From contig JBKEBI010000070.1 of NCBI GenBank assembly GCA_047973085.1, forward strand, positions 1,338-65,337: a stretch of DNA of 64,000 nt, read 5' to 3'. A model generated the notes under the pieces. It worked only from the letters and a program-made list of their open reading frames with translations. It did no database searches and was not told where the DNA came from. The position numbers and the translations under genes were made by a program. Each line of letters opens with the position of its first letter. The stretch's first letter is position 1. Source of the stretch: Bacilli bacterium. GTDB taxonomy: Bacteria; Bacillota_I; Bacilli_A; JBKEDG01. Positions 41,149 through 62,647 of the stretch are shown here, in pieces.

Positions 41149-44100
41149 CTATTTACAATTAATTTTTTTAGTAACTATTATAGCTTCATCATTTACCACA
41201 TCAAACATCATTTTATCAATTATTCTAGTTCGTTTAAAATTATATTCAAATTTTTCAGTATTTGTAATTATAATTCTATTTTTTATCTCACTTAAAACTT
41301 TACTATTTACATCTCTGTAATAAAAACTTTTATAAAAATTACCCGAAACAAAATCATCATATATAAGAACTACATCACTTACACAAACCTTAGAAAAATC
41401 TCTTAAATATAAATAATTATCTTCCTTTGAAATAGCAAATTTTTTTTTAGATGGTTTTAAGTGTGATAAATAATTTTTAAATTCGACAACATCATTTCCA
41501 TATAAACATATACCTTCTCCTATCAAAAAATCTGTTTTACTCTGTTTTTTATAAAATAAAGTAAAGAGTTCCCCAGGATCGCTAACAGATAACATAAATT
41601 TATTATCAAATATCTTTATTAATCTAGATAACCTTCCTGATATGCCTAACGCAGTAATTATAATTCTTATATTGTCATATCGTCTGTAGCCACACTCTTC
41701 AATAAAACTTAGTAATAGTTCTGAGGTAAATAATTCAAAACCGTCTATAATGAAGTATGTATTTACTTTCAAAGTTTTTGCATAACTAATAAATATTTCA
41801 ATTTGAGTATCAGTATCAACATAAATATCCACTTTATTTATAAAACTATCATCTTTCCCAAAATATATTATACATCCATCAAATTTACTTATAATAGTTT
41901 TGATAAGCTCACTTTTCCCACTTTGCATTTTTCCTATAATAAGATAATTATCATGTGAAATTTCATATTCTGTAAAGTTTTTTCTATCACTAAAGTTAAG
42001 TAAAACTTTATTTGATTCTTCAACTGGAAAACTTTTCCATATAACATAATCTGTTTTTTGATACTTTAGATTTAAATTAAAAATGTTGTCATTAAGAATT
42101 GTAGTACTGAATTCATCAGCTCCATTTATTACAACATTACTTTTTTTAAAGTCAAGGCAATTGAATACCTTAATGTACGTATTATAATTATTGACAGACA
42201 CAATTGCCTCGCCAGAAAAACTAAAATATGCAGCTTCTTTACTACCAATAACCTCGATGCTGTCTTGAACTGAATTTACTTTTAAACATATCTTATAATT
42301 AATATTACTCTTTAACTGCTCTGTCAATATTCCTGAAGATTTTTGTAAAGATAATATTAAAAAAATACCTAAACTTCTTCCTACTCTTGCTATTGATTCA
42401 ATTTCTTCTATAATATTTCCTAGATTTTTTTTAACTTCAGCAAATTCATCAATTATAATGAACAACCTTGGCAATTTAAAATGATTATTGATTTCATTGT
42501 ACTCACTAATTCCATACTTACTAAAAAGCTTTTGACGATATATCAATTCACTTTTAATAGAAGCAAGAACATTTTCATAATTTCCACTTAAATTTGAAAA
42601 CACTGAAGCAATATGTGCAAGGGATATGACCTTTGAAATCAACGAATCTCCTTTAAAATCAATTATCCCAATTACTGCTTCTTCGGGTGTATAATGTAGT
42701 GCAATTTCCATAATTATCTGCAGTAGTAAAACACTCTTCCCACTTCCTGTCATTCCAACTATTAATCCATGTGGGCCTTTATTTTCTATATCTAATACGT
42801 AATTTTCACTTAATCTTATTCCAAACTTAATAAAATTAATTTTTTTACTACTATTAAAAATTATTTTTTTCTCGTAAATATATAAAATTCTTGAATTCAA
42901 AGTAATATAACTATATAAATAGAAAACCCCCGTTTTAGTTATAAATCTATTTCTAAATAAATTATTTACTTCAAGTATATCATCTGTCATATCTTTAACA
43001 TCTAAATAAATTACCTTGTTATCATTCATGAAATTACTTAAGTTTATATTAACATTACAAACAATAATACATCCCTTAAAATTTTTATAAAAAGAAAAAT
43101 TATTCATACTGTAATATTCAGCATTTACTATAAAATCATAACGACTAAAATTTCCTATAAAAATTATTCTTTGGTAAAAATCACAATTTATTATTGATAA
43201 TAATAAATTATGTAAAAACAATGTAGCATATTTGCCCACAAAAGTAATTTGCTTCAAATAAATTTTAAAATGAAAACTTCCCAACTCTTTAACTTTTTGT
43301 GTAAAATGGATTTTCAAATTTTTCTCAGTAATTCTTGCATTAACATTAATTGGTTTTAATATATAGCCAATGCACATATTTTTTTGTTTAATTAGTTTAA
43401 ATTCAGTTATTAAATAATTTTTACGTAAATCTTTTTTTATTATTAAAAATAGCTTATTGAGAGCTAAATCAAAATTTTGCTGAACAAATCTATTATAGTA
43501 TTCAACTTTCCTCTTTTGTTTAAAATACATTACTAAAGAGGCACTAACAGTTGAAATACTGCTAGCTAACATAAAAATAATCATGCTACTTCTTCTTGTA
43601 AAAAAAGAGAGTAAAATCATTACTACCACCATTATTACGGGAGGAATAATATATCTTGAAATATTTTCTTGAAACAATTGAAGCGTATCATTGTAGTTAA
43701 ATTCATAATCAAACTTACTTTCATAATCTTTTTTGATTGTATCTAATTCATTATATATAAAATAAGAATTTCCTTTATATTTTCCTTTTTGATTTAAGAA
43801 AACTAAGTTTTGATCAATAATAAACTTATAAACTCCCGTACAAATACTTAGAGATCCATTAAAATAAAATTCCCCTTGTTCATAAAATTTGTTTTCTACA
43901 TAAACTGGAGAGGTAAATTTAATATATTTTTTCTCTAAATTTATTTCTACATCGGATGTTGTAAGAATAATTTCATTAAGTTTAAACTTCTCTTTTTTAA
44001 TACAAATCCTATTTCCAATACATCCAATTACATAAAAAAATAAGTATTTTTCAATATAGTAAAGTTTATTTAATTTAAAATTATTTTCAAAAATAAAATT

Positions 44101-44235
44101 AGAAGTTAATTTTTTATTGCTAATCATAATAAAAAGTTTATTATTTATTATATTCAAATATGTTTTTTTATCTTCTTTTATATAATATTCAAAATAATAA
44201 TCTTTTACATATATTCTTATAAATACTTGACTCAT
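41149..44235 (-). CDS. essC: FtsK/SpoIIIE-family ATPase of type VII secretion (EssC/YukB-like), short 1028-aa form
   Basis: N-terminal FHA-like region, two TM helices (IIPPVIMVVVMILLSFF ... MIIFMLASSISTV), Walker A GMTGSGKS, Walker B IIIDEFAEV, and a second P-loop GKMQSGKS. Directly downstream of WXG100 and YukD-like genes. Confidence 0.8.
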   Translation of the reverse strand: MSQVFIRIYVKDYYFEYYIKEDKKTYLNIINNKLFIMISNKKLTSNFIFENNFKLNKLYYIEKYLFFYVIGCIGNRICIKKEKFKLNEIILTTSDVEINLEKKYIKFTSPVYVENKFYEQGEFYFNGSLSICTGVYKFIIDQNLVFLNQKGKYKGNSYFIYNELDTIKKDYESKFDYEFNYNDTLQLFQENISRYIIPPVIMVVVMILLSFFTRRSSMIIFMLASSISTVSASLVMYFKQKRKVEYYNRFVQQNFDLALNKLFLIIKKDLRKNYLITEFKLIKQKNMCIGYILKPINVNARITEKNLKIHFTQKVKELGSFHFKIYLKQITFVGKYATLFLHNLLLSIINCDFYQRIIFIGNFSRYDFIVNAEYYSMNNFSFYKNFKGCIIVCNVNINLSNFMNDNKVIYLDVKDMTDDILEVNNLFRNRFITKTGVFYLYSYITLNSRILYIYEKKIIFNSSKKINFIKFGIRLSENYVLDIENKGPHGLIVGMTGSGKSVLLLQIIMEIALHYTPEEAVIGIIDFKGDSLISKVISLAHIASVFSNLSGNYENVLASIKSELIYRQKLFSKYGISEYNEINNHFKLPRLFIIIDEFAEVKKNLGNIIEEIESIARVGRSLGIFLILSLQKSSGILTEQLKSNINYKICLKVNSVQDSIEVIGSKEAAYFSFSGEAIVSVNNYNTYIKVFNCLDFKKSNVVINGADEFSTTILNDNIFNLNLKYQKTDYVIWKSFPVEESNKVLLNFSDRKNFTEYEISHDNYLIIGKMQSGKSELIKTIISKFDGCIIYFGKDDSFINKVDIYVDTDTQIEIFISYAKTLKVNTYFIIDGFELFTSELLLSFIEECGYRRYDNIRIIITALGISGRLSRLIKIFDNKFMLSVSDPGELFTLFYKKQSKTDFLIGEGICLYGNDVVEFKNYLSHLKPSKKKFAISKEDNYLYLRDFSKVCVSDVVLIYDDFVSGNFYKSFYYRDVNSKVLSEIKNRIIITNTEKFEYNFKRTRIIDKMMFDVVNDEAIIVTKKINCK

Positions 44236-44435
44236 AGAAAGATAACATCTCCAGTTCTAATATCAGTATCATAAATTAGCTTGCTTACATCATAGTAGCA
44301 ATCATTAAATAAGCTATAAACATACTTATTTTCTACTCCAAAAATTTTACATATTTCAGAAATTGTAGCAAAAATATTGCAATCTATGCAATATTTTTTA
44401 CCATCCACAATAGCATCAATAAATATTCTATCCAA
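44232..44435 (-). CDS. esaB: YukD/EsaB-like small ubiquitin-fold protein
   Basis: 67 aa ending in the TGDVIFL ubiquitin-like C-terminus. Lies between the WXG100 and essC genes and is translationally coupled to both. Confidence 0.5.
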   Translation of the reverse strand: MDRIFIDAIVDGKKYCIDCNIFATISEICKIFGVENKYVYSLFNDCYYDVSKLIYDTDIRTGDVIFL

Positions 44436-44706
44436 GAATTGTTTTATCGACTTCAGAAATAGATTCTGCTGTATGTTTAATTACTCTACTAGTTTCTAAG
44501 ATAACTTCTTTTAGTCTTAAAATTGATGGCTTTACCTCTAAATAATTTTTTTCAAATTTATTTGCTGAAGCTCCTTCCCAATATGTTTGTAATTCAATAA
44601 GCATATTATCCAAATTTCTCACCATTTCTTCAACATTATCTGACTGCCTTTCATATTTAATTGCAACTGCTAGCATCTGTTCCACATCTAATTTAATTCT
44701 ACTCAT
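44428..44706 (-). CDS. esxA: WXG100-family (ESAT-6-like) secreted protein
   Basis: 92 aa helical hairpin with a central W-x-G (LQTYWEGASANKF). Confidence 0.8.
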   Translation of the reverse strand: MSRIKLDVEQMLAVAIKYERQSDNVEEMVRNLDNMLIELQTYWEGASANKFEKNYLEVKPSILRLKEVILETSRVIKHTAESISEVDKTILG

Positions 44707-47805: not shown

Positions 47806-47953
47806 TTAGTTTAGTCCCCATTTCAATTTTTATCCAAATATACTTTAACATATTTTCACAAAAATAACAAACAATCCGTCTAATTAATTTAAATCATTGA
47901 TTTTAATAATTTCTTAACATATAATAATATATAGATATATTTGGAGGTTAAAA

Positions 47954-48189
47954 TGACTGACTTTAATAAAGTAGAATTTATAACAAATAAAAATATAAAA
48001 TACCATGTAACATTACTAACAAATTTATTTTTTGGTATGTTTGGAGTTCATCGTATTATAAATAAGAAATTTATTAGCGGATTTATTATGCTTGGAATCG
48101 GCGTTTTTTCATCAATTTTATGGTTGATATCACTATTTGTTGATTCAACACTATTTACAACGATAACAATAGGATTTAATCAGCAATAA
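47954..48189 (+). CDS. TM2-domain small membrane protein
   Basis: FGMFGVHRIINKKFISGFIMLGIG matches the TM2 G-x-x-G-x-HRF motif. GGAGG SD lies before the ATG at 47954. Confidence 0.5.
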
Positions 48190-48191
48190 AT

Positions 48192-48899
48192 ATGTGGAAA
48201 CTAATTGATTTATCCTTAATATTAACAAAAAATTTTAAGAATAAAAATGGAGAATATATTACTATCAACAAGCCCTTTTGGAAAATTTGGAGTAATATTT
48301 TATCAATCTGCATAATTATCCTTTCACTTTTGATTACTAGCATTGCTGGATTTGTTATAGTTATTAAAAATGTTACATACAATAGTAAGTATATAGCTGA
48401 AGAAGTAGAGGCATGTTTAAATGATCCAGAAAATGTAAACGTACTAAAAAATGAGAAAGCTATAGCTTCATTTTTTGAAAATAAGGGATATGATGAAATA
48501 GAAAGTAGTTTCCCTTATGAAAAAAAATTTCAGAATAAGATTGATAAAGATATTTTTTTAGAGTTTTCTTACTATATAAACTATGATAAGACAATTACAT
48601 GTAATGTTAGAATGTTATATACTGCTGATGAAGATTATATAGTAACACTATACCCTATTAGTTCTGAATCCGACTTTTCTAATAAGTCGAGTATTTATGT
48701 AAACTTAAGTGCAAGTTATGATGAGTATATAGTCGTTCATGCAAATCCAAACGAATTAGTTTACATCTCCGTAAATAATGGTAGTGATTATGAAAGTATT
48801 TCTAATAATAAATTTGAAAATAAGTATGAAAAAGAATATAACTTAACAATCGATGCTATTGATATTTTTACAATAGAATACTCTAATATTATTAAATAA
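48192..48899 (+). CDS. Membrane-anchored hypothetical protein
   Basis: N-terminal TM helix followed by a ~170-aa domain of unknown function; translationally coupled to the TM2 gene. Confidence 0.35.
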   Translation: MWKLIDLSLILTKNFKNKNGEYITINKPFWKIWSNILSICIIILSLLITSIAGFVIVIKNVTYNSKYIAEEVEACLNDPENVNVLKNEKAIASFFENKGYDEIESSFPYEKKFQNKIDKDIFLEFSYYINYDKTITCNVRMLYTADEDYIVTLYPISSESDFSNKSSIYVNLSASYDEYIVVHANPNELVYISVNNGSDYESISNNKFENKYEKEYNLTIDAIDIFTIEYSNIIK

Positions 48900-49495: not shown

Positions 49496-50251
49496 ATTAA
49501 TCTCCTTTAAATTTAACCTGTTTCAAGAATTATACCATATAATAATATTTATTAATATATAACTATATAAAAAATCATCACACTACTTATCATAATGAGA
49601 TGATTATTATATATTTCAATTAAATTTATTATATTTGTAAATATGTTCTCTAATAACAATTTAAGCAATGTTAAGGCTTGGAAAAAGCAAACTACAATAA
49701 TTACACTATTTTCAAAGAGTTTTTCTAATATATATGTATGTTACTTGTTAGAAATAAAAATTACACATGACAACATTTTTCTCATCTCGGCATAATGAGT
49801 TATTCTTATTTGTTTATTTTCATATTCAACAAGCATAAACCCATATATTATTTTGTTGAAATACAACACATAATTACCCTATTGCTTTATAATTATATTT
49901 GCAATACCTTTTCTATCAAAATATAATCATATACATAATAAATCACTCTATTTAGTGTCGGCATCATAGCCACCAGTATGCCGGTTTATTATGTTATGAA
50001 AATAAATATATGAAAGAACTATGTAGTAATTTTAAACTTTGTGAGACAATCATAGATAAAATTATTTATAAACCCCATTTACCAATGTATACTTCATCAT
50101 ATTTGGATGAACAACATTTCTGTTTTTATAGTTGATTTTATAATTCATATTAAGTTTTACTAAGCGTTACTTTCCCCTAACCATCAACGTATACAATTTT
50201 ACAAGAGTTTTAACTAAATATCAATATTTAGCGCATATCATGCACTTTTGG

Positions 50252-50280
50252 GTACATATCTTGCATTTTTTGTACACTTC
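50252..50280 (+). promoter_or_regulatory. Direct repeats GTACATATC / GTACACTTC (20-bp period): candidate LytTR-regulator binding box
   Basis: Two 9-bp imperfect direct repeats sit immediately upstream of the -35 of the kinase promoter. This geometry resembles AgrA/ComE-type boxes. Confidence 0.35.
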
Positions 50281-50294
50281 TTATACATGTAATA

Positions 50295-50324
50295 TTGACA
50301 TAGGTATATATAAGGATATATAAT
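50295..50324 (+). promoter_or_regulatory. Sigma-A-type promoter of the AgrC/AgrA-like operon
   Basis: -35 TTGACA (50295-50300), an 18-bp spacer and -10 TATAAT (50319-50324). An AGAGGTGA SD follows, then the ATG at 50346. Confidence 0.55.
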
Positions 50325-50345
50325 TATTACAGAAGTAGAGGTGAT

Positions 50346-51719
50346 ATGATGACTAATTTTATAGTGTTTTATACAGTGTCATTTATATTAGAATACCTTA
50401 TTATATATTTAACAATTGGTCGGAATTTTTATCTAGTAAAAAAGCTTAAATTTAACAGTTACATAAAAATTATAATATTAATAGTATTAAGCATTTTTAT
50501 TAGAACACTTACTTCTATGAATGGGGTCCCCCATTTTATAAATATTATTACATTTATATTATTATTTATATATTTACTAATTTTATCAAAAAATTCATTT
50601 AAGTCAGCATTTTATTGGATAGTAATGACTTCATTTATTATATTTATTTCAGAAGTTTTTGTATTTATGATTGATAATATATTTATAGATAAAACCTTTC
50701 TTTCATCTTCTATGATAATTCGCATAAATACTACAGAACGCTTTATTAAACTATTTATACTTATGCTTGCTTCAAAGTTAGTAATATATATTTTATTAAA
50801 ACTGTTTACATCTCTTGTTTTAGAAAAAAAATCTATTCTTCAAAACTATAGTGTAGAATTTAGAATAATCATTGCAATTATGTTTATGCTTTTATTATTT
50901 ATAGCAATTGTTCAATTAAATTTAAGAGGATTTCTTAAAAACCCCATTATATTTATCAACTTATTTATAATAATATTATTTAGCTTATCAATACTATTTT
51001 TATTCTTATTTTTAAGAATAGCTAAGACTGCAGATGAACATATTAAAAGACAAAAGCTTGTAGAAACTCTCGAAAATAAAATCAAATTAAATAATACTAT
51101 TGAAACTGCTGAAGCTAATTTAAAAGCACTTAGGCACAATTTTTCCAATATATTTACAGTAATAACTGGACTTTTAAATCTTCAAGAATATTCTAAACTT
51201 AAAGAATATATTAATGAAATTAATGATGATATATATGATGCACATAAAATTGTTTTTTTAGCAAATAAACCCTTAGAAATCCTTGTAAATAACAAATTAA
51301 ATATAGCAAAACAACATAATATAAATTTTAAAACAATTATATCAACACACTCAATTACAAATTTTAAGAATAGTGATTTGTGTGACATAATGGGAAATAT
51401 TTGGGATAATGCTATTGATGCTGCTACAGAAGAACAAGGTGTAAAAACTATTATCTCAATAATGAATGTTCAAGATGGAAATTATGTAATAACGTGTGAA
51501 AATCCATACATTATTCCTCCAAATAGAATTGGAAATAAGTTTATTTCCACTAAAGGAGAAAATCGTGGTTTTGGTACGAAAAATGTTAATGCTATTGTAA
51601 AAAAATATAATGGTAACTTAAAATATGAGTTTAGAGATGGAATATGCAATGTATCAATAAAATTTCCTATCAAGAAACTAGATGAAAATAAAATTGAAAT
51701 TATTTTAAATGATGTGTAG
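50346..51719 (+). CDS. AgrC/ComD-type (HPK10) membrane sensor histidine kinase
   Basis: Six or more N-terminal TM helices, a phospho-acceptor H in LRHNFSN, and a C-terminal GHKL region (GENRGFGTKNV). Confidence 0.8.
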   Translation: MMTNFIVFYTVSFILEYLIIYLTIGRNFYLVKKLKFNSYIKIIILIVLSIFIRTLTSMNGVPHFINIITFILLFIYLLILSKNSFKSAFYWIVMTSFIIFISEVFVFMIDNIFIDKTFLSSSMIIRINTTERFIKLFILMLASKLVIYILLKLFTSLVLEKKSILQNYSVEFRIIIAIMFMLLLFIAIVQLNLRGFLKNPIIFINLFIIILFSLSILFLFLFLRIAKTADEHIKRQKLVETLENKIKLNNTIETAEANLKALRHNFSNIFTVITGLLNLQEYSKLKEYINEINDDIYDAHKIVFLANKPLEILVNNKLNIAKQHNINFKTIISTHSITNFKNSDLCDIMGNIWDNAIDAATEEQGVKTIISIMNVQDGNYVITCENPYIIPPNRIGNKFISTKGENRGFGTKNVNAIVKKYNGNLKYEFRDGICNVSIKFPIKKLDENKIEIILNDV

Positions 51720-51728
51720 GTGAGTTGA

Positions 51729-52454
51729 ATGGGGTATAATATACTAATCTGTGAAGATAATAAATATGCATTAAAAATAAATGATTCATACATAAAAAAA
51801 GCGTTAAGTGATATGAAAATAAATGGATGTATTCATACATACACTAATCCAGAAGTATTCTTTAGTGATGCCTCACATTTGGAGTTTGATATAGCATTCC
51901 TCGATATTAGATTTACAAATTCAAAATACTCTGGAGTAGATATTGCAAAAAAATTGAATGAAACAAATGATAATATTGTAATAGCATTTATTACTGGAGA
52001 GACAATTGATGTGACTGAAGCATACGAAGTAAGAGCATTTGATTATATAAAAAAGCCTATTATATGTAGTGACTTTCAATATACTTTTGCTAGAATTATA
52101 AAGCAAGCTGCATCTATAAAACATTATAATAGACCAAACTATATCTATTTAAGAACAAATTATTTGAAACAAAAAATTAGAACATCCGAAATTATTTATA
52201 CTGAAAAAATCGGTCATTCAATTGAAATAAATTTAAAAAATGGCAAAAAAATTATCGCAAACCATAGTACTAAGGAATTATGTGCTATGCTTGATAATAC
52301 ATTTTCAAGACCAAATCAAACAAATATTGTAAATCTAAATTATATAAATTATATTGATAAAAAAAATCTTGTTTTAAAAAATAGTTTAAAGTTAAAAATT
52401 TCAAGACATTTTAATAAGTCATTTATAGAAGATTATAGCAAATTTAATATTTAA
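51729..52454 (+). CDS. LytTR-family response regulator (AgrA/ComE-like)
   Basis: Receiver domain (ILICEDN ... FLDIRF) and a C-terminal LytTR DNA-binding domain. Confidence 0.85.
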   Translation: MGYNILICEDNKYALKINDSYIKKALSDMKINGCIHTYTNPEVFFSDASHLEFDIAFLDIRFTNSKYSGVDIAKKLNETNDNIVIAFITGETIDVTEAYEVRAFDYIKKPIICSDFQYTFARIIKQAASIKHYNRPNYIYLRTNYLKQKIRTSEIIYTEKIGHSIEINLKNGKKIIANHSTKELCAMLDNTFSRPNQTNIVNLNYINYIDKKNLVLKNSLKLKISRHFNKSFIEDYSKFNI

Positions 52455-52548
52455 AACTAGTATATTTATGATTTATAAGTTAGTTATATTTATTTACTAA
52501 AAAAGCATCAATTAGATGCTTAGTTATAATATATTTATAATTTAAATA

Positions 52549-52623
52549 TGGCAGGGGTAACAGGATTTGAACCCGTACTAACGGTTTTGGAGACCGCTGT
52601 GCTACCGTTGACACCATACCCCT
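52549..52623 (-). tRNA. tRNA-Trp (anticodon CCA)
   Basis: Reverse complement reads AGGGGTATGGTGTCAACGGTAGCACAGCGGTCTCCAAAACCGT...TTCAAATCC...TACCCCTGCCA, with a 7-bp acceptor stem and anticodon loop CUCCAAA. Confidence 0.85.
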
Positions 52624-52624
52624 A

Positions 52625-52701
<77 letters not shown>

Positions 52702-52808: not shown

Positions 52809-53672
52809 ATGCATTACAAAAAAGTAAAAAGTATTCTTTCAACTAAAGATAGAATGAATTTATATCGTGGATGTACACATGGGTGCATATACTGTGATTC
52901 TAGAAGTACATGCTATCAAATAAAACATGAGTTTGAAGATGTTGAAATAAAAGAAAATGCAATCGAACTTTTAGAAAACACTCTATTTAAAAAAAGAAAA
53001 AAATCAATGATAGAAATGGGATCAATGACAGACCCATATCTTCCAATAGAAAAAACTGTTTGTCACACTAGACAAGCACTTGAAACAATATATAAACATG
53101 GATTTGGTGTGTCATTAATAACAAAATCTGATCTAATCTTACGTGATGTAGATATTTTAAAAAAAATTAATGAACGCTCCAAATGTGTAGTTCAAATAAC
53201 TATAACAACTATTGATGATAGTTTATGTAAAATAATTGAACCTAATGTGGCAATTACAAGTAAAAGAATGAAAGTATTAGAAATTATGCAAAAAGAAAAT
53301 ATTCCTACTGTAGTTTGGTTAACCCCTATTCTTCCATATATTAATGATACAGAAGAAAACATTACAAGAATTATTGATAAGTGTATTGAATATGGAGTAA
53401 AAGGTATTATGTGTTTTAATATAGGTTTAACACTAAGAGAAGGTAATAGAGAGTATTTTTATAGTCAACTTGATAAAAATTTTCCTGGTTTAAAACAAAA
53501 ATATATAAATATGTATGGAAATAATTATATTATTGAAAGTAAAAATAATCAAAAATTAATGAATATTTTCATAAAAAAATGTAGAGAAAATAACATAATG
53601 TATGATACAAACCAAATTTTTGAATATTTACATCATATGGAAGAAAAAGAAAAACAACTTAGTTTATTTTAA
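52809..53672 (+). CDS. Radical SAM protein, SplB-like (COG1533 'DNA repair photolyase' family)
   Basis: CTHGCIYC CxxxCxxC cluster near the N-terminus; 287 aa. Confidence 0.55.
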   Translation: MHYKKVKSILSTKDRMNLYRGCTHGCIYCDSRSTCYQIKHEFEDVEIKENAIELLENTLFKKRKKSMIEMGSMTDPYLPIEKTVCHTRQALETIYKHGFGVSLITKSDLILRDVDILKKINERSKCVVQITITTIDDSLCKIIEPNVAITSKRMKVLEIMQKENIPTVVWLTPILPYINDTEENITRIIDKCIEYGVKGIMCFNIGLTLREGNREYFYSQLDKNFPGLKQKYINMYGNNYIIESKNNQKLMNIFIKKCRENNIMYDTNQIFEYLHHMEEKEKQLSLF

Positions 53673-53714: not shown

Positions 53715-54575
53715 TTAAATTCTTAACTCTTCAAATTGTAAAGGTATCATTCCTAATGTAGAATGATATCTTTTATTTGGATAATAATCTTCCAAGTAAT
53801 CAATCATCTCTGAAATTAAGAAATGTTTTGATATATTTATATTAGGATAAACCACTTTCCTTCTTGAAGTTACTAAAAAATGATTCACAAACAGCATTGT
53901 CGTAGGGATTACCCGGTCTTGACATTGAGTGGATTACAGAATATTCTTCAAGTAAATTTCTAAATTCCTTACTTGTATATTGTGATCCTCTATCTGCATG
54001 AATTATCATATCTTCGGTTGAATTAATCTTTAAATATTTTTCTAATTCTCCTGTAACTAGTACACTTTTCATGTTTGTGCTTATCATGTAACATACCAGA
54101 TTTCTTGAATAAATGTCTAATATATTGATAAATATAACATTCCTGTTTTATGGCGAAGATGTGTAATATTGCTACACAATATTTTTCCTTTACTTTCAGC
54201 ATAAAATTCTCTATTTAATAAGTTTTCTCGTATATAATCATCTAGTGATTTTTGATTTCTATACTTACGTTTATGCCTATAACCTACAGCTATTAAATTA
54301 TTATCTCGCATTATTTCTGCCACAACTCTTTTATTAGTTTCTATTCCCTCACTAAATAATTAAAGTGCTATTTTAGGTGAACCATATCTACCTTTATGAT
54401 CTTTAAAAACTCTAATTACTTCTTTTTAGTAATCATTCCTCTTTTTATTTGTGTAAGTGATTTAGGACGACTTTTAAAGTTATAATATCACGCTCTTGTA
54501 ACATTTAAGAGTTTGCAAAGTTCACTTACTGTATATTTATTTCTGTAACCATCAGAATTTAGAGTTCTTAAATAA
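53715..54575 (-). pseudogene. Degenerate IS3-family transposase (orfA HTH remnant plus frameshifted orfB/rve integrase in at least three pieces)
   Basis: Fragments ADRGSQYTSKEF...SMSRPGNPYDNAVCESFF (rve DDE core), the C-terminal piece YYPNKRYHSTLGMIPLQFEE, an N-terminal orfB piece, and an upstream HTH-like remnant. They lie in different frames with intervening stops. Confidence 0.7.
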
Positions 54576-55055
54576 CAAAGAAAATGTATTGCTATTTGGT
54601 AATCCTAGTGTTGGTAAAACACACTTAGCAATAGGATTAGGAATAGAAGCATGCTTATCTAATAAAACTGTTTTATTTATAAGCGTACCTAATTTGATGA
54701 TAGAATTAAAAGAAGCAATGAATTTAAATCAAATTCAAAAGTACAAAAGGAATTTTGAAAAATATGACTTAGTAATATTGTATGAACTGGATATATATTT
54801 GAGAAGGAGGCAAACGAGGTATTATTTAACTTATTGTCAAATAGAAATAATAAAGGCTCAATAATACTTACAACCAACCTAACATTTGAGAGATGGAATG
54901 AAGTATTTAAGGATCAAGTATTAACTGCTACAATTGTTGATAGATTAGCTCATAAGTCACATATCATTGATTTAACAGGTGAAAGTTTTAGAGCAAAGGA
55001 AACCATTGATTGGTTAAATAAAAATCAGGTTGCAAGTAGACTCATTTTCACTTGA
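54576..55055 (+). pseudogene. IS21-family IstB helper ATPase fragment (5'-truncated, internally frameshifted)
   Basis: Begins abruptly at the Walker A motif (LFGNPSVGKTHLAIGLG), continues LVILYELD (Walker B), then shifts frame into ...TTNLTFERWNEVF...DRLAHKSHIIDL. The N-terminal ~100 aa are missing exactly where the IS3 remnant abuts. Confidence 0.65.
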
Positions 55056-56748
55056 CAAATACATCATTGGGTCCTATGTTAATAAATATACAATTATCAA
55101 CTTTTTTAATATATCCTTTTTGTGGATAATATGTCATATCCTCAGAAATTTTTTCTTCTTCTACAACTGTTAAACTTTTTATATTACAAGCATTTACATC
55201 ATAACCCAAATAATTTATATATTTAATTAGATATTCTTGCTTCAAATTAGGATATCCTGTTGTTCCAAATGTGTCTAAATATACAATATTGCTATAATAT
55301 GAGAAATCATAGTAGTCTTTCCCTTCATTTTCTAATATTCCCCCATAAAACCTATTTTCAATTGTATTAAATATTTTTCCACGAAGTGTATTCTTTTCTA
55401 TCTGTATGATTGCATCATCATTTTCACTATCATCAATTTTATATTTACCAACAAAATAAATTTTTTGTTCCGTACCATATTTGCTCTCAACATCATGTAT
55501 TATTGTATAAAAAAATCTTTCTTGCTCTACATTCTTTTGCCAATCTCGTTCATAAAACATATTTTGCAAATGAGCACCAGAATATACAGCAAACGCAGAT
55601 ATTATTATAAAACCCTTTTTAAATATTTTTCTATCAAGCATTAAATAGACATATGCACTTCCAAACATCACGAATGTTGCCATAGTTTGAAGTGTTCTTG
55701 GGAGCTGCGACTTACCATCTACTATAGAAATACCAAAAATAGTTAAATTTATCATAATTAGAATAAAGAAATTTATCCATCTTGTTTTTCTATCTTTAAT
55801 AGTAAATATTCCAACAAACATTAAAATTGTTACTATTACATGAAACATGTGTGAAAAACTAAATAAAGCAACAAAATAGTGATCCACAAATATATTAATG
55901 ATCAAACTTTTCAAAGTATGTATGATAGAATCTGAACTTAACCATACACTTTCGGATATTGAAACTCGATCCAATTTATCCACATTTAAAATATTAATTA
56001 ATCCATTAGCAATCAAACTTTCAAAAATAGTAGCTACTATAATTACAATCATTGATATAATTAACAGCTGTAATAGACTAGTAACATTTATTTTACTATT
56101 TCGTGTACTACTAAATAAGCAAATAAATAATATCATCATAAAATACACAAAAACAAATGATTCATACGAGCTTATTAATAGTATCAATAGCAGAGTGATT
56201 ACAATTAAATATTTAATTTTTTGAGTAAGGCAATATTGTATAGTATATACTACTGCAAGTATTGATAGTAAATATCCAAGCGCAGTTAAAACTGTTACTA
56301 ATAAATATTTAAATATTAAAGCATTAGTCGGAAATGTTAACAATAATCCTGTAAATATAGCTAAAACTACATAGTTTTTTATCCCACTAATCATTTTTAA
56401 AAGGGCTGCAGTTAAAACTGAAGCAATTATAAAAATAATAATTGTTATGGCCATTGTAAAAAATACATGATATTGCATTACATCAAATACTTCATGCAAA
56501 ATTTGTCCTACAAATCTACCTTGACTTATAAGACCATAGTTATCAAAAAATCGAATTGTATCTAGATCATCAACACCTGTTGCATGAAAATAAAGAGAAA
56601 AGCCATATGTTAAAAACGTAAAAAAAAGCGTAATTAACATAAATATATTATTAAAAAACAATTTTCTAACATTTTTGAAATAATCATTTAAAAAATCTCC
56701 ATTATATTTAATACAATTAAATTTTAAAAGCTCTTTTAATTTATACAT
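55048..56748 (-). CDS. Polytopic membrane glycosyltransferase, GtrC/GtrII-like (paralog 1)
   Basis: 566 aa, about 12 TM helices, conserved DDLD...F...G.ISQGRFVGQ N-terminal loop and a C-terminal soluble domain. Located in an operon with gtrA and gtrB. Confidence 0.55.
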   Translation of the reverse strand: MYKLKELLKFNCIKYNGDFLNDYFKNVRKLFFNNIFMLITLFFTFLTYGFSLYFHATGVDDLDTIRFFDNYGLISQGRFVGQILHEVFDVMQYHVFFTMAITIIIFIIASVLTAALLKMISGIKNYVVLAIFTGLLLTFPTNALIFKYLLVTVLTALGYLLSILAVVYTIQYCLTQKIKYLIVITLLLILLISSYESFVFVYFMMILFICLFSSTRNSKINVTSLLQLLIISMIVIIVATIFESLIANGLINILNVDKLDRVSISESVWLSSDSIIHTLKSLIINIFVDHYFVALFSFSHMFHVIVTILMFVGIFTIKDRKTRWINFFILIMINLTIFGISIVDGKSQLPRTLQTMATFVMFGSAYVYLMLDRKIFKKGFIIISAFAVYSGAHLQNMFYERDWQKNVEQERFFYTIIHDVESKYGTEQKIYFVGKYKIDDSENDDAIIQIEKNTLRGKIFNTIENRFYGGILENEGKDYYDFSYYSNIVYLDTFGTTGYPNLKQEYLIKYINYLGYDVNACNIKSLTVVEEEKISEDMTYYPQKGYIKKVDNCIFINIGPNDVFVK

Positions 56749-56762
56749 TTTTATCTACCACT

Positions 56763-58456
56763 CCTTCTTATTCATCAATACTATTTTGTCCTATATTAAC
56801 AAATATACACCCATCTTGTTCTTTTATGTATCCATTTTGTGGATAATAATTCATATCTTTAGCCATATCTTTTTCTTCAGTTTCATCTAAATATTCAATA
56901 TCGCATGAATTCACATCATACCCTAAATATATAATATATCTAATAAAGTACTCTTGTTTATGTTATGTTTTAGCATAATCTCCAAAAACATCAATTAGCA
57001 CAGAACTACTGTAATATGCATATGCATAATAGTCAGAACCCTCATTAGTTAATTTGCTATCATAAAATCTTTTATTTATATAATTAAATATCTTTCCAGG
57101 ATAACTATCTTTAGTTATTTGTAAAACAGAATCATCATACCATTTCTGTTCAACATCATACTTACCAATAAAATATACATTTTGTCCACTACCATATTGA
57201 TATTCAACATCATGCATAAGCGTATTTAAAAAGTTTTCTTGTTTTAAATGATTTTTCCATTCTCTTTCATAATATAAATTTTGTAAATGCGCACTTGAAT
57301 ATATTGCAAAAGACACCACAATAATAAATGTTTTTTTAATCCACTTCTTACATAATGCAATATAAACATATCCACTACCAAACATAACAAAGGTTGAAAA
57401 AGTTTGCATTGTTCGCGCTAACTGTACTTTTCCTTCTACAACAGTTATTCCATAAACTGAAATATTTATTAAAATAATTATTAATATGCTTCTCAATAAA
57501 TATTTTCTATCGCTTACAAAAAAAGTAGCAACAAACATAAAAAATACAATTAAAACATAATACATATGAGAAAAATCTAAAAGTCCTATAAAGAAATAAT
57601 TAATAAAAATATTAAAGATTAGTCTTTTGATAGTATACATAGATGGTGATTTAAACCACATACTTTCAGATATAGCGACTCTATTTATTTTTTCTAAATC
57701 TAGGATGTAAATTAGTAAATTAGAAACTAATGATTCTATAAGTGTTGAAACTATTATTAATATACATACATATAATAAAAATTTTATGATTGACTGCGTT
57801 TTAAACCTACTATTAATTCTCAAACTAAATAAAATAAAAAATAAAATCATAGTAAAATAAACAAAAACAAATGATTCATATGAACTAATTGCAAAAACTA
57901 ATAAAGAGATTACTACTAAACTACTTTTGATTTTTTTCTCTAAAATAAAATGAATGGTATATACAACAGCAAATATAGATAGTATATATTCTAAGCTTGT
58001 TAAAACTGTAGCTAAAATAAATTCAAAAATAAAAGCATTTGTTGGAAAAACAAGCATTAAGGCTGTAAACAACGCAATCATAAAGTTATTCTTAATACCA
58101 CTTATCATTTTTAGCAATGCTGCTGTAAAAATAGATGCAACAATAAAGAGAATGATTGTAATAGCCATTGTAAAAAAAGCATGATTCCACATAATATCAA
58201 ATACTTCGTGTAATATTTGTCCAACAAATCTACCTTGCCTTATTAATCCATATTCAACGAAAAATCTATCTCTATCTAAATCATCAGCTCCTATTGCATG
58301 AAAATAAAGATAAAAGCCGTATGTTAAAAACGAAGTACCAAGTAGAAATAACATAAAACAATTACTTTTAATAAGTTCTTTTACTGTATCATAGTATTCT
58401 TTTAGAAAATTTCCATCATAAGTTAAAATATTATCTTTTTTCAATAATTTTTTCAT
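56763..58456 (-). pseudogene. GtrC/GtrII-like paralog 2, interrupted by an in-frame TAA at 56963-56965
   Basis: 497-aa ORF highly similar to paralog 1 (GADDLDRDRFFVEYGLIRQGRFVGQILHEVFD...). Homology to paralog 1's C-terminus (HKQEYFIRYIIYLGYDVNSCDI...NGYIKEQDGCIFVNIG) continues in the same frame directly after the TAA stop. Confidence 0.55.
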
Positions 58457-58477
58457 TAGTTCCTCCTAATTTTTATT

Positions 58478-59374
58478 TTATTTTAAAGAGTCGCCTAATT
58501 TTTTAAATCCATTTTCTAAACTAATTCTAGGATGCCAATTAGGTAAAGTTTTGTAGGCTCTTTTTAATTTCATAATCTCCATAGGACGGTAGTCTTTTCC
58601 ACCCCAATTAACATTAATTTGGCAACCATTAACTTCTTCATATAATTTAACCGTATCTTTAACACTTAAAGTTACTGGTGAATATACATAAAATTCTTCA
58701 TATGTCTCTGAACTATTTATTAAATACTCGTGAGCACACACAAATGCCCTACATACATCTTCTGCATGGGTTAAATTCATATCTTGTTCTCCAAGTGTAA
58801 GATTTGTCTCAATATCAGTACCACAATTTTGTGCAATAAGATTTATTAGTTTTATTCTAATATCCTTTTCCGAATAATTGTCAAACAATTTCAATGTTAA
58901 ACATTTCATTTTTTCCACATCAGAATAATACTTCATCATATCAATAAATGCCTGTTTTGTCGCGGCATAGAGATTTGTTGGAATGTATTCATCTGTACTT
59001 GTAAAATGTTGTGAAAATGTACCTGTATTGATAAAATATTTAATATTATTTTTTTTCATCAACTCAAGCATATGTACTCCTAATTTAATATTACTATCAA
59101 GCATTCTATCAACATCGTTTATTGTATGAAAACCAACTATACAAGATGCTAAATGAAAAATAACATCGACAGTTTTGTTATTAAAGTATATTAAAAGCTT
59201 GTCAAGATCTCCATTATATTCATATACATCAATTTTATCTATAATATCAATCAAATTACTATCATTAAAATTTTCCACATCTAAAACTGTAACATTATAT
59301 CCATCATCAAGTAAGATTTTTACTAAATTAGATCCGATAAAACCAGCACCGCCAGTTACAATTGCATTTTTCAT
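58478..59374 (-). CDS. NAD(P)-dependent sugar epimerase/reductase (SDR), likely CDP-4-keto-6-deoxyhexose reductase/epimerase
   Basis: VTGGAGFIGSNL Rossmann motif and YAATK catalytic motif. Start taken at MKNAIVTGG (59374), immediately after the gtrB stop. Sits in the rfbFG/gtr operon. Confidence 0.65.
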   Translation of the reverse strand: MKNAIVTGGAGFIGSNLVKILLDDGYNVTVLDVENFNDSNLIDIIDKIDVYEYNGDLDKLLIYFNNKTVDVIFHLASCIVGFHTINDVDRMLDSNIKLGVHMLELMKKNNIKYFINTGTFSQHFTSTDEYIPTNLYAATKQAFIDMMKYYSDVEKMKCLTLKLFDNYSEKDIRIKLINLIAQNCGTDIETNLTLGEQDMNLTHAEDVCRAFVCAHEYLINSSETYEEFYVYSPVTLSVKDTVKLYEEVNGCQINVNWGGKDYRPMEIMKLKRAYKTLPNWHPRISLENGFKKLGDSLK

Positions 59375-59375
59375 C

Positions 59376-60323
59376 TTATTCACCATCCTCGGAGAAATTA
59401 ATTCTCTCTTCTTCAATTACATGAGGTCGCTTCATAACTCTTGTATTAATACTTAAAATATATTCTCCCACAATACCTATAAAAAATAATTGCACAGCCC
59501 CTAAAAAGAATACTCCAACTAAAAGTGATGGAAATCCTAAAGCAAATTTATCCCAATTTAACGCCTTTTGAAAGGCCACTACAATTGCAAAAATAAATGA
59601 TAAAAATCCAACAAAAACTCCCATAAAAATAGCTAATCTAAGAAAAACAGTAGTATATGAAGTTATTCCTTGCATTGCTACATCATAGTTTCGTATAAAA
59701 TTGAAATTTGAAAAACCTCTATTACTTTTTTCTTGAGTATATTGGATGATTTTAATATTTGATCCAAATTCAACTACAATCCCTTTAAGATATGGATTGG
59801 GATCGTCTATTTCATGCAAAATATTAATAAATTTTTTATCATACAAACCAAATCCAACAAAATGTTTAATTTGATCAATTTCACCAAATCTATCCATTAT
59901 CCAATAAAAAATTGATCTAAACTTAAACATTAACCAATTTTCCTTACTAACTAGCTTTTGTCCAACTACAACTTGATGCCCTTTTTCCCATTCAGATATA
60001 AAATCAACAATTAATTCAGGTGGATCTTGTAAATCTCCATAAACTAAAAAGGTAGCTTCACCAGAACCTTGTTTCAAAGCATGAAAAACATTTCTTGAAA
60101 ATCCAAAATTTTTACTATTAAAAATACATTTTACACGCTTATCTTGTGCTGCAAGTTTTCTAAGTAAAGTTCTTGTATTATCTTCAGAACAATTATCAGC
60201 AAAAATCAATTCAAAATCATAATTTAAAAGTTGACTTTCAAAAACACTTAAAATTCTATCATATATAACTTCAACACTTTTTTCTTCATTAAATGTAGGA
60301 ACTACTACACTAATTATTTTCAT
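59376..60323 (-). CDS. gtrB: GT2 polyprenyl-phosphate glycosyltransferase (GtrB/CsbB-like)
   Basis: VVVPTFNEE and ADNCSED GT-A motifs plus two C-terminal TM helices. Confidence 0.8.
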   Translation of the reverse strand: MKIISVVVPTFNEEKSVEVIYDRILSVFESQLLNYDFELIFADNCSEDNTRTLLRKLAAQDKRVKCIFNSKNFGFSRNVFHALKQGSGEATFLVYGDLQDPPELIVDFISEWEKGHQVVVGQKLVSKENWLMFKFRSIFYWIMDRFGEIDQIKHFVGFGLYDKKFINILHEIDDPNPYLKGIVVEFGSNIKIIQYTQEKSNRGFSNFNFIRNYDVAMQGITSYTTVFLRLAIFMGVFVGFLSFIFAIVVAFQKALNWDKFALGFPSLLVGVFFLGAVQLFFIGIVGEYILSINTRVMKRPHVIEEERINFSEDGE

Positions 60324-60711
60324 CTACTTTTCCCCCTTTAAAGCCCCAATATTTATTTAAAATATAGTTTATTGGAGTTGTTATCATCACTCCAAAAATA
60401 GGAGCAATTTTTTCGTTTATACTCATAATATCAACAAATAAATACATTAAAAAAGTATATACAATTAAAGAAAATATATAAATTGAATACACTTTTACTA
60501 TACTGTTAAAACTATGTTTTACTTTGAAAACAAAGAATCTATTCATAACATATGCATTTAAAATACTTAAAAAATAAGCAAAAATTGTTGCTATTAAATA
60601 ATGAATATTTAATAATAGTAATAAATTATAAACTGAAATATTAATTGCAAAGTTAATAAAACCTATAATACAAAAAAATATAAATTTTTTAGAAAAAAAA
60701 TCATTACGCAT
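60310..60711 (-). CDS. gtrA: GtrA-family small membrane protein (lipid-linked sugar flippase)
   Basis: 133 aa with 4 TM helices, located immediately upstream of gtrB. Confidence 0.7.
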   Translation of the reverse strand: MRNDFFSKKFIFFCIIGFINFAINISVYNLLLLLNIHYLIATIFAYFLSILNAYVMNRFFVFKVKHSFNSIVKVYSIYIFSLIVYTFLMYLFVDIMSINEKIAPIFGVMITTPINYILNKYWGFKGGKVDENN

Positions 60712-60738
60712 TTATTATCTCCTTAAATCGTATAATAT

Positions 60739-61779
60739 TTATAGCTTATCAATAAAGTATTGAATCTGTCTATTTGTCACATCATTTTTATCACTACATT
60801 TTGCCCATTCTACACATAAAGCAATCGCTTCATCAACATTAAAAAGAGGTTGCCAATTTAAAATGTTTTTTGATTTAGAACAATCAAGTTTTAAAAATCC
60901 AGCTTCATGTGGTCCATTATTATTAATAATTTTAAATGAAGCATTTTCCTTCCACTCATTACAAAACTTTTCTACTAGAGTACCTGTTGTAATACAATCT
61001 TCTTCATTTGGACCAAAATTATAACATCCTTCAAAACTTTTATTATTATATTGCTTTATTGCAAGCAATAAATACCCACTTATACAATCCATAACATGCT
61101 GATAAGGTCTTGTAGAATTTGGATTCCTAATAATGATTTCTTCCTTGTTAGCTGCATATTTTATGCAATCAGGTATTATTCTATTTGCAGAAAAGTCTCC
61201 TCCACCAATTACATTACCTGATCTTGCAGTAGAAACTGAAATATTATCTTTTAAATCGAAAAAAGATTTTTTATAACTATATGAAACAAGTTCACTACAT
61301 GATTTTGAATTTGAATATGGATCATATCCACATAACTCTTCATTTTCACGATATCCCCAATTCCACTCTCTATTTAAATAAACTTTATCTGTAGTTACGT
61401 TAATAAAAGATTTAATGCAATCTAAACTTCTAACAACTTCTAAAATATTAACTGTTCCCATCACATTAACATCATATGTATACACTGGTTCATCATATGA
61501 ATCTCTAACTAACGGCTGTGCTGCAAGATGTAAAACTATATCAGGTTGAAACTTTTCAATACAAGACTTTAAAAAAGTAAAATCTCTTATATCTCCTTCA
61601 AAATGAGTAATCTTATTTTTTGTTTTCAAAATATCAAACATCTCATATGTTTGATGAGAATAGCCTGCAACTTCTGCACCGAATTTTAGCAATATTTCTG
61701 TTAACCAAGTTCCCTTAAAACCTGTATGTCCAGTAATAAGAACTTTCTTACCTCTATAAAAATCTACCATTTTTTCCAT
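60739..61779 (-). CDS. rfbG: CDP-glucose 4,6-dehydratase
   Basis: KKVLITGHTGFKGTWL Rossmann N-terminus, an SDR-extended fold, and adjacency to rfbF. Confidence 0.85.
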   Translation of the reverse strand: MEKMVDFYRGKKVLITGHTGFKGTWLTEILLKFGAEVAGYSHQTYEMFDILKTKNKITHFEGDIRDFTFLKSCIEKFQPDIVLHLAAQPLVRDSYDEPVYTYDVNVMGTVNILEVVRSLDCIKSFINVTTDKVYLNREWNWGYRENEELCGYDPYSNSKSCSELVSYSYKKSFFDLKDNISVSTARSGNVIGGGDFSANRIIPDCIKYAANKEEIIIRNPNSTRPYQHVMDCISGYLLLAIKQYNNKSFEGCYNFGPNEEDCITTGTLVEKFCNEWKENASFKIINNNGPHEAGFLKLDCSKSKNILNWQPLFNVDEAIALCVEWAKCSDKNDVTNRQIQYFIDKL

Positions 61780-62534
61780 TTTGCTTTTCCTTCTTCAATA
61801 AGTTCTTCTAGATATTCTTTATCTCTTAATGTGTCCATACACTGCCAAAATCCATTATATTTATATGCACCAAGTTCATTATTTTGAGCAAGAGATTCAA
61901 GCGGAAAACGCTCTAAGATTTCATTATCATTTCTTAAATAATCAAATATTTCTTTTTCTAGAACCATAAATCCACCATTAATATACCCCATATCATCTTT
62001 TGATTTTTCTCTAAATGCATGGATCTCAGATTTATTCCCTATTTCCAAAATACCAAATCTTCCTTCTGGACGTACAGCAGTAAGTGTAGCTTTAAATTTA
62101 GAATTCTTATGAAATTCAATTAGTTCGTTAATATTTAAATCACATACTCCATCTCCATATGTTAGCATAAAAGTTTCATCTCCAACATACTCTTGAATTC
62201 GTTTAACTCTTCCACCAGTCATTGTATCTAATCCAGTATCAATAAGAGTTACATTCCATGGTTCAGAAAAATTATTATGAACTTTCATAGTATTATCTTT
62301 CATATTAAAAGTTACATCCGAAGTATGTAAATAATAATTTGCAAAGTACTCTTTAATTTTATAAGCTTTATATCCAAGACAAATAATAAAGTCATTATGT
62401 CCATAATGTGAATACATTTTCATTATGTGCCACAAAATTGGTTTTCCTCCAATTTCTATCATTGGTTTTGGAATTAAATGACTCTCTTCAGATATTCTTG
62501 TACCATATCCACCAGCTAAGATTACTACTTTCAT
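61764..62534 (-). CDS. rfbF: Glucose-1-phosphate cytidylyltransferase
   Basis: MKVVILAGGYGTRISEE...KPMIEIGGKPILWHIMKMYS is a hallmark of RfbF/DdhA. Confidence 0.9.
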   Translation of the reverse strand: MKVVILAGGYGTRISEESHLIPKPMIEIGGKPILWHIMKMYSHYGHNDFIICLGYKAYKIKEYFANYYLHTSDVTFNMKDNTMKVHNNFSEPWNVTLIDTGLDTMTGGRVKRIQEYVGDETFMLTYGDGVCDLNINELIEFHKNSKFKATLTAVRPEGRFGILEIGNKSEIHAFREKSKDDMGYINGGFMVLEKEIFDYLRNDNEILERFPLESLAQNNELGAYKYNGFWQCMDTLRDKEYLEELIEEGKAKWKKW

Positions 62535-62647
62535 AAATACACCTCTTTTATTTATTTATTTTTTCTATTATAACATATTTGTATTACATTTTACCATTAA
62601 ATATCATAGTATTTTAAAATCTATTAAATTAATAATCTTAATAATTT

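Follow-up and report, generated by a model that had tools for sequence, protein, structure and literature searches.

In Staphylococcus aureus, the AgrC kinase acts with the response regulator AgrA, and the agr P2 promoter has direct repeats approximately 21 bp apart and a promoter spacer of 18 nt. The Pfam architecture of the kinase described below is also found in ComD, PlnB, and BlpH, and the ComD/ComE, BlpH/BlpR, and PlnB/PlnCD systems are autoregulated via direct repeats. Receptors that stand apart from a signal gene are known from the LuxR solos, which eavesdrop on acyl-homoserine lactones. Dispersed agr components have been described in clostridia: agrBD and agrCA form separate operons in Clostridium acetobutylicum (PMC10301443), and Clostridium autoethanogenum contains two incomplete, separately located agr modules, the response regulators of which are presumed to be encoded elsewhere (PMC8748961).

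The stretch of DNA analysed here (hereafter the window) comprises 64,000 nt of a 65,692-nt contig from a fragmented MAG, and the absence of any gene is reported for this window. It encodes a sensor kinase and a LytTR-type regulator (Table 1), which we consider likely to be a functional, autoregulated AgrC/AgrA-type system that is derived from an agr module, now stands apart from the pheromone genes, and probably responds to an AgrD-derived ligand. The GC content of the window is approximately 23–35% (2-kb bins), and most of its genes have housekeeping functions and lie on the minus strand. The kinase–regulator pair is located within a patch (approximately 47.9–55 kb) of plus-strand genes, two tRNA genes, and IS debris. 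Signs of local decay, i.e. this IS debris and a frameshifted neighbouring gene, are present near the pair.

Table 1. Features of the kinase–regulator locus and its surroundings (positions in the window)
Feature	Position	Strand	Description or evidence
EssC-like FtsK/SpoIIIE ATPase and WXG100 genes	41–44.7 kb		
Non-coding gap	49496–50230		Extends from the divergent hutD-like gene to the promoter region of the kinase gene; neither a gene nor an RNA is recognisable
Three tandem direct repeats	50231–50291	+	20–21 bp, starting at 50231, 50252, and 50272; repeat and box searches
Sigma-70-type promoter	50295–50324	+	TTGACA-N18-TATAAT; 12/12 consensus, best site in a 4.2-kb scan
Ribosome-binding site	50338–50343	+	GAGGTG ahead of the kinase ATG; read from the sequence
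AgrC-type sensor histidine kinase	50346–51719	+	457 aa; 7 TM, DHp with H264, HATPase_c_5; ORF call, Pfam, and alignment
AgrA-type response regulator	51729–52454	+	241 aa; REC (D59 in DIAFLDI, K-P in YIKKP) and LytTR; Pfam Response_reg and LytTR
GC-containing hairpin	52503–52521		In the space that separates the regulator stop from the convergent tRNA pair; terminator scan, minus-strand site 52521–52503
tRNA-Trp and tRNA-Ile genes	52549–52701		
Radical-SAM gene	52809–53672		
IS fragments	53.7–55.1 kb		
GtrII/GT2/GtrA genes	55–62.5 kb		

In Pfam searches, the kinase matched HATPase_c_5 (E 1e-15), SPOB_a (6e-8), and HATPase_c, the first two above the Pfam cut-offs; SPOB_a represents the dimerisation domain and HATPase_c_5 the ATPase. 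Seven hydrophobic segments are present in residues 6–219, the pattern of a polytopic sensor with 6–7 TM helices and no large extracellular domain, and the loops that lie outside the membrane between these segments are short. In an alignment of 20 sequences (the kinase and 19 homologues), the N-box GNIWDNAIDA and the G-box GFGT are both kept, and residues H264, N351, N355, G408, and G410 show little or no variation. Among the solved structures in the PDB, only those of S. aureus AgrC were matched: 6e52 (kinase module; E 5.8e-6) and 4bxi (ATP-binding domain). Residues 68–420, including transmembrane helices, align with the AgrC equivalog model of NCBIfam (NF046015), with a score of 31.2 bits (E 1.3e-7) against a curated cut-off of 500, and the kinase is therefore regarded as a member of the AgrC family rather than as an orthologue. 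For the cytoplasmic half, the DcuS/MalK subfamily model scored higher (62 bits) than the staphylococcal AgrC model (31 bits), both scores being far under the respective cut-offs. The LytS-type sensors, to which the first-pass annotation had pointed as the possible other affiliation, were also considered, and no Pfam match to a LytS-type domain (5TMR-LYT, GAF, or His_kinase PF06580) was obtained in the kinase; it is of the AgrC/ComD (HATPase_c_5) type and not of the LytS type. The NCBI record of the kinase (MFV0425150.1) begins at M94 and contains 364 aa (the regulator is MFV0425151.1). Four observations support the 457-aa start: the GAGGTG site, the position of the promoter, the full-length alignment with homologues (residues 6–454 with relative P0026), and the gene call in a second strain, L033.

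The regulator provides the adjacent REC–LytTR partner of AgrC-type kinases, and its acceptor motif (DIAFLDI) and K-P motif are also present in the regulators of the relatives. Its start lies 9 nt past the kinase stop and is preceded by GGTGAG, which indicates that the two genes form an operon. The initial description of a two-gene operon of the AgrC/ComD type is thus borne out by the ORFs, the Pfam matches, and the AgrC-only PDB matches. The tRNA genes have their terminator in the hairpin downstream of the regulator gene; this hairpin probably also serves as a weak terminator for the kinase–regulator operon.

The direct repeats upstream of the kinase gene were detected in two ways: a repeat search matched 50234 with 50255 over 16 nt (spacing 21, 88% identity), corresponding to the first two units, and the second and third units contain exact GTACAYWTC boxes (at 50252 and 50272). 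Only one further exact copy of this box exists on both strands of the 64 kb. A loose search for paired boxes in the window found arrays only ahead of the kinase gene, together with one match in coding DNA that is at the background level (shuffles yielded 2.9 pairs on average). A gap of 3 nt separates the third repeat from the promoter. Since a perfect promoter directly follows three direct repeats, autoregulation of the operon is suggested; the repeats are putative binding sites of the LytTR regulator, and the layout is that which would be expected for such a regulator activating its own operon. To our knowledge, the repeat motif matches no published AgrA, ComE, or PlnC consensus, and no common repeat or regulator box was found in the promoters of the relatives.

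A comparison with strain L033 was possible through a 7-kb Logan contig, on which the gene order is identical to that in the window and the coding genes share approximately 98.7–99.6% nucleotide identity. Both the kinase and regulator ORFs are intact and full length in the two strains. The regulator has 5 synonymous substitutions against 1 non-synonymous (dN/dS 0.05), and the kinase has only 18 in all, 7 synonymous and 11 non-synonymous (dN/dS 0.40), the latter value being compatible with relaxed constraint; 8 of the 11 amino acid changes in the kinase are located in the sensor half. The repeats and the consensus promoter are conserved: only one substitution is present in the 100-nt bin 50180–50279, and the final 250 nt upstream of the kinase show 1–2.5% divergence.

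Pheromone, processing, and export genes were searched for throughout the window. A custom AgrB (PF04647) HMM constructed from 120 sequences gave only negative scores in each of the six reading frames, both for the window and for L033 (200 bits in a control locus), and the tblastn search of the upstream gap for AgrB was likewise negative. The AgrD motif (a Cys/Ser ring with an [E/Q/K]-P-x-x-P follower) had no Cys-type match in the window; the same regular expression recovers AgrD in all five control loci. No double-glycine-leader ORF was found in the window outside the long genes, and no C39-type or other peptide exporter was found among the Pfam-scanned ORFs, a set that covers all but some 20 ORFs, most of which lie within the first 36 kb; the ABC matches in this set were only SufC, UvrA, and an ABC-2 permease. 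The window thus contains neither the linked AgrB and AgrD precursor of a complete agr locus nor the double-glycine pheromone gene with a nearby C39-peptidase ABC exporter that marks a ComD/ComE-type locus. The observation of the first-pass annotation that agrB/agrD, a double-glycine peptide gene, and a peptide exporter are lacking nearby therefore extends to the HMM, motif, and Pfam searches of the 64-kb window.

The annotation had also considered that the signal might be encoded in the 850-bp region upstream of the kinase. This was not confirmed: the gap contains no AgrD motif, double-glycine leader, small ORF with a ribosome-binding site, AgrB remnant, or Rfam match. The Rfam search (E ≤ 1) returned the two tRNAs and chance matches only, with no RNAIII-like element, and neither the 120-sequence AgrB HMM nor Pfam, which was run on three minus-strand and three plus-strand frames of the gap in the window and on one in L033, detected anything. 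Two candidates in the gap were rejected. A 41-aa ORF (50010–50135) has no ribosome-binding site and no AgrD or double-glycine motif, and is interrupted by a premature stop in L033. A decayed agrB was dismissed as chance: tblastn with three AgrB sequences gave E values of approximately 0.1–9, and the weak matches, which include a minus-strand ‘QALTLL’ resembling the AgrB C-terminus, were judged fortuitous. The middle of the gap (49580–49880) is the fastest-evolving stretch of the locus, with 4–10% substitutions and 34 gap columns between the two strains. Synonymous sites in the flanking genes diverge more slowly (0.009–0.037), and the middle of the gap thus appears to be unconstrained.

The neighbouring genes had been named as possible regulatory targets. 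The T7SS-like, tRNA/IS, and glycosylation regions were located as described (EssC-like/WXG100 genes, tRNAs, IS fragments, and GtrII/GT2/GtrA genes), and their proposed role as targets did not find support: paired boxes occur only before the kinase gene, the lone loose match elsewhere is background, and no boxes were found near the T7SS-like or glycosylation genes. The paired repeat motif is absent elsewhere in the window, which leaves no link between the kinase–regulator pair and the T7SS-like or glycosylation genes.

Relatives of the kinase were collected by a search of 1.84 billion representatives, in which the family amounted to 14,544 representatives at 50% identity (E ≤ 1e-3). The kinase is divergent, its nearest relative sharing only 42% identity. 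Among the six nearest relatives (30–42% identity), five adjoin AgrB and/or an AgrD-like peptide with the ring C-x-[W/A/L]-F-[L/F]. P0026 (42%) is accompanied by a divergent AgrB and a 59-aa AgrD (CMAFL/NEVEEPK; …KCMAFLNEVEEPK…), and P0027 (36%) is found in the order kinase–regulator–AgrB–radical SAM/SPASM, followed by a 64-aa AgrD (CAWFL/YEPERP; …GCAWFLYEPERP…). A divergent AgrB and a 49-aa AgrD (CSWFL/YEPKMP; …ECSWFLYEPKMP…) accompany P0028 (32%), which lies beside a YcaO/nitroreductase cluster; P0029 (34%) adjoins a 66-aa AgrD-like peptide (CQWFF/CKPKQP; …RCQWFFCKPKQP…) and a radical SAM/SPASM enzyme, and P0031 (30%) adjoins AgrB and an AgrD-like ORF of 62 aa (CLLFF; …GCLLFFGEAKKTP…). The sixth, P0030 (30%), is located in another type of peptide/ABC cluster, in which MacB-type ABC transporters and an M50-like peptidase accompany two small peptides that are paralogues of each other. 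In a more distant relative, P0002 (27%), a 45-aa peptide with a double-glycine leader, MFRKLTEEELLKTDGG, is encoded between the regulator and the kinase. The regulators paired with P0027, P0028, and P0029 are 34–38% identical to that of the window, and the H-box variant RHN[ILF]SN[IT]F is common to the kinase of the window and P0026, P0027, P0028, and P0029. Together with the agr linkage of the relatives, these similarities indicate that the pair belongs to an agr-linked clade, and since agrB/agrD is adjacent in the nearest relatives, its standing alone is a derived state. Neither the radical-SAM gene of the window nor its other neighbours resemble the cluster genes of the relatives.

Broader relatives were surveyed in metagenomes (80 loci, 26 of which are well flanked, i.e. 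by at least 4 kb and 3 kb). In the well-flanked set, an adjacent LytTR regulator was present at 21 loci, and AgrB was nearby at 5 and absent at 21. Over all 80 loci, 20 contain an AgrB or AgrD-like ORF and 60 contain neither; a double-glycine-leader ORF was found at one. Given this AgrB-less majority and the published split agr systems of clostridia, a kinase–regulator pair without adjacent pheromone genes is an ordinary arrangement for the family.

The agr linkage of five of the six nearest relatives makes an agr-derived receptor module separated from its pheromone genes the most likely origin of the pair. Because no ligand gene was found in the window, the ligand type is predicted from the relatives only. 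If this prediction is correct, the seven-TM sensor would bind an extracellular peptide, most likely an AgrD-derived cyclic thiolactone with a five-residue hydrophobic or aromatic ring of the C-x-W-F-L kind. The kinase would then autophosphorylate on H264, the phosphate would pass to D59 in the LytTR regulator, and the phosphorylated regulator may increase transcription of its own operon by binding to the three direct repeats that adjoin the -35 element. Further targets of the regulator, if any, would lie outside the window, and the peptide could originate from an unlinked agrBD locus elsewhere in the genome or from other cells.

Some observations run against this reading: the relatives are just 30–42% identical and sensor domains shift specificity quickly, P0030 lies beside a different peptide/ABC cluster, and P0002 is found with a double-glycine-leader peptide. 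In addition, the DcuS/MalK model outscores AgrC for the cytoplasmic half, the dN/dS value of the kinase is 0.4, and the repeats are unlike the consensus sequences known to us.

Among the other explanations, it is rather unlikely that the pair is a true genomic solo, i.e. that agrBD is absent from the entire genome and the pair eavesdrops on the cyclic peptides of other bacteria. The absence of agrB and agrD holds over 64 kb, and the adjacent agrB/agrD genes of the nearest relatives imply that their loss here is derived; however, this absence is established within the window only, approximately one MAG contig, and agrBD located apart from agrC(A) has been described in clostridia (PMC8748961, PMC10301443). 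In its apparent lack of constraint, the upstream gap resembles a deletion scar, but it contains no detectable AgrB remnant, and a local deletion is thus hypothetical. The intact pair, with the regulator under strong purifying selection in two strains, speaks for a solo. A more specific version, an ‘AgrCA solo’ that has lost agrBD and any linked peptide-biosynthesis cluster and in which the autoregulated receptor is kept under selection for community peptides, is unlikely. A further idea is that of a decaying relic that has no function and is heading for loss after deletion of its partner genes. The IS debris and frameshifted neighbour point to local decay, the upstream gap evolves fast, and the kinase has a dN/dS of 0.4 with most changes (8/11) in the sensor half, but both ORFs are full length in the two strains, all catalytic motifs are intact, the dN/dS of the regulator is 0.05, and the promoter and repeats are conserved; we consider a relic very improbable.

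The remaining alternatives concern the ligand. It might be of the ComC/Blp/Pln kind, i.e. a peptide, linear or bacteriocin-like, that has a double-glycine leader, depends on ABC/C39 export, and is encoded elsewhere, given that ComD, PlnB, and BlpH share the Pfam architecture, that P0002 has its 45-aa leader peptide, and that P0030 adjoins the peptide/peptidase/ABC cluster described above. This is improbable in view of the AgrB and/or AgrD found instead in five of the six closest relatives, the lack of a double-glycine-leader ORF or C39 exporter in the window, and the single double-glycine-leader ORF among the 80 surveyed loci. It also appears improbable that the kinase is not a quorum-sensing receptor and senses a non-peptide cue, such as the state of the membrane or cell envelope or a small molecule: its closest clade is tightly agr-linked, it has no LytS-type domains, and the direct repeats and self-directed promoter fit the positive feedback of peptide quorum-sensing systems, even though only short extracellular loops join the seven TM segments, AgrB is absent in 21 of 26 well-flanked relatives, and both AgrB and AgrD are absent at 60 of 80 loci.

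Taken at face value, the locus adds one more divergent AgrC/AgrA-type pair, from uncultured low-GC Bacilli, to a family in which stand-alone pairs are common. If a complete genome proved to lack agrBD, the pair would become a clear-cut candidate for eavesdropping on the peptides of other species, and a solo would then represent a Gram-positive counterpart of the LuxR solos. A by-product of the analysis is of more use, i.e. that the nearest clade of the kinase includes agr modules located inside radical-SAM/SPASM or YcaO peptide-modification clusters.

As in AgrC/AgrA of S. aureus, a kinase with a polytopic sensor, DHp, and HATPase_c_5 is paired with a REC–LytTR regulator, and as at agr P2, direct repeats spaced by approximately 21 bp adjoin a promoter whose spacer is 18 nt long. 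Unlike in the S. aureus agrBDCA operon, the order is kinase–regulator only, without agrB/agrD in the operon or in the 64 kb; furthermore, the repeat sequence differs, no RNAIII-like element was detected, and the kinase is not an orthologue. ComD/ComE, BlpH/BlpR, and PlnB/PlnCD consist of the same kinase and regulator families, but their double-glycine pheromone gene and ComAB-type exporter are absent from the window, and the nearest relatives of the window kinase are linked to agr and not to double-glycine peptides.

The dispersed agr systems of clostridia (PMC10301443, PMC8748961) resemble the locus in that the components are split into units, some of which are missing from a given locus, and the nearest relatives, which are uncultured, likewise contain divergent agrB–agrD and kinase–regulator units. 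In the published clostridial cases, at least agrD, or agrB and agrD, stays beside the kinase, whereas here the pair stands alone among housekeeping genes. Three uncultured agr modules located inside RiPP-like clusters (L040, L121, and L122) differ from the window in their AgrB and/or AgrD, their radical-SAM/SPASM or YcaO enzymes, their CPBP proteases, and their ABC transporters, which have no counterpart in it, but they contain the closest relatives of its kinase (32–36% identity) and regulator (34–38% identity), and the same H-box variant is present.

The kinase gene is annotated publicly (MFV0425150.1, 364 aa) with its start at M94, so that transmembrane segments 1 to 3 are lost. The 457-aa form (window 50346-51719) is supported instead by the alignment with homologues, by the position of a ribosome-binding site and by the gene as called in L033, a second strain with the same gene order. 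Within the 850-bp non-coding gap upstream of this gene, positions 49580-49880 show 4-10% divergence and 34 gap columns between the two strains, compared with 98.7-99.6% identity in the neighbouring genes. This segment may be the scar of a deletion or a tract exchanged by recombination, and no gene remnant was identified in it. The gap also contains a hairpin, CGGCAT-N13-ATGCCG, with a T-rich run behind it. The hairpin stem is kept in L033 although the loop carries a deletion, and the structure could not be linked to any particular transcript.

The TM2-domain gene (window 47941-48899) is split by a 1-nt deletion near position 48179 into two ORFs of 82 and 235 aa, and is present in L033 as a single 315-aa ORF; the split reflects either pseudogenization or a fault in the assembly. 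Besides the ATPase and WXG100 pair, which is flanked by tRNA-synthetase and housekeeping genes, no further T7SS components were evident. IS debris occupies window positions 53715-55055 and adjoins both the tRNA-Trp/tRNA-Ile pair and, at 52809-53672, a radical-SAM gene of the PA0069/Rv2578c family. The glycosylation block encodes two tandem GtrII-like glucosyltransferases, GT2, GtrA, two epimerase/dehydratases, a nucleotidyltransferase and an ABC-2 permease, with a GC content of ~23-27.5%, similar to that of the flanking DNA.

Features of the window and of the clusters carrying the nearest kinase relatives
Sequence	Position	Strand	Feature
Window	41149-44706		FtsK/SpoIIIE-family ATPase (EssC-like, 1028 aa) beside WXG100 protein (92 aa)
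Window	49953-49977	+	Hairpin and T-rich run
Window	53842-54087	-	rve integrase-core fragment (one, clear)
Window	53715-54323 (including the rve fragment)	-	Short ORFs without Pfam matches on either side of the rve fragment
Window	54589-55055	+	IstB (IS21 helper) fragments (two)
Window	55048-63457		Glycosylation block
L040	4684-9494		AgrB and/or AgrD, CPBP proteases, ABC transporters; radical-SAM/SPASM enzyme
L121	84-7070		AgrB and/or AgrD, CPBP proteases, ABC transporters; YcaO and nitroreductase
L121	84-236		(SC)n-repeat precursor, 50 aa
L122	1137-7722		AgrB and/or AgrD, CPBP proteases, ABC transporters; radical-SAM/SPASM enzyme

The nearest relatives of the kinase, found in three uncultured loci (L040, L121 and L122), belong to agr modules set within peptide-modification clusters. 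A conserved protein of ~167-195 aa without a Pfam match is encoded directly upstream of the agrD-like gene or, in L121, after AgrB. These clusters may encode a class of AgrD-type peptides that are further modified, or a class of RiPPs under agr control.
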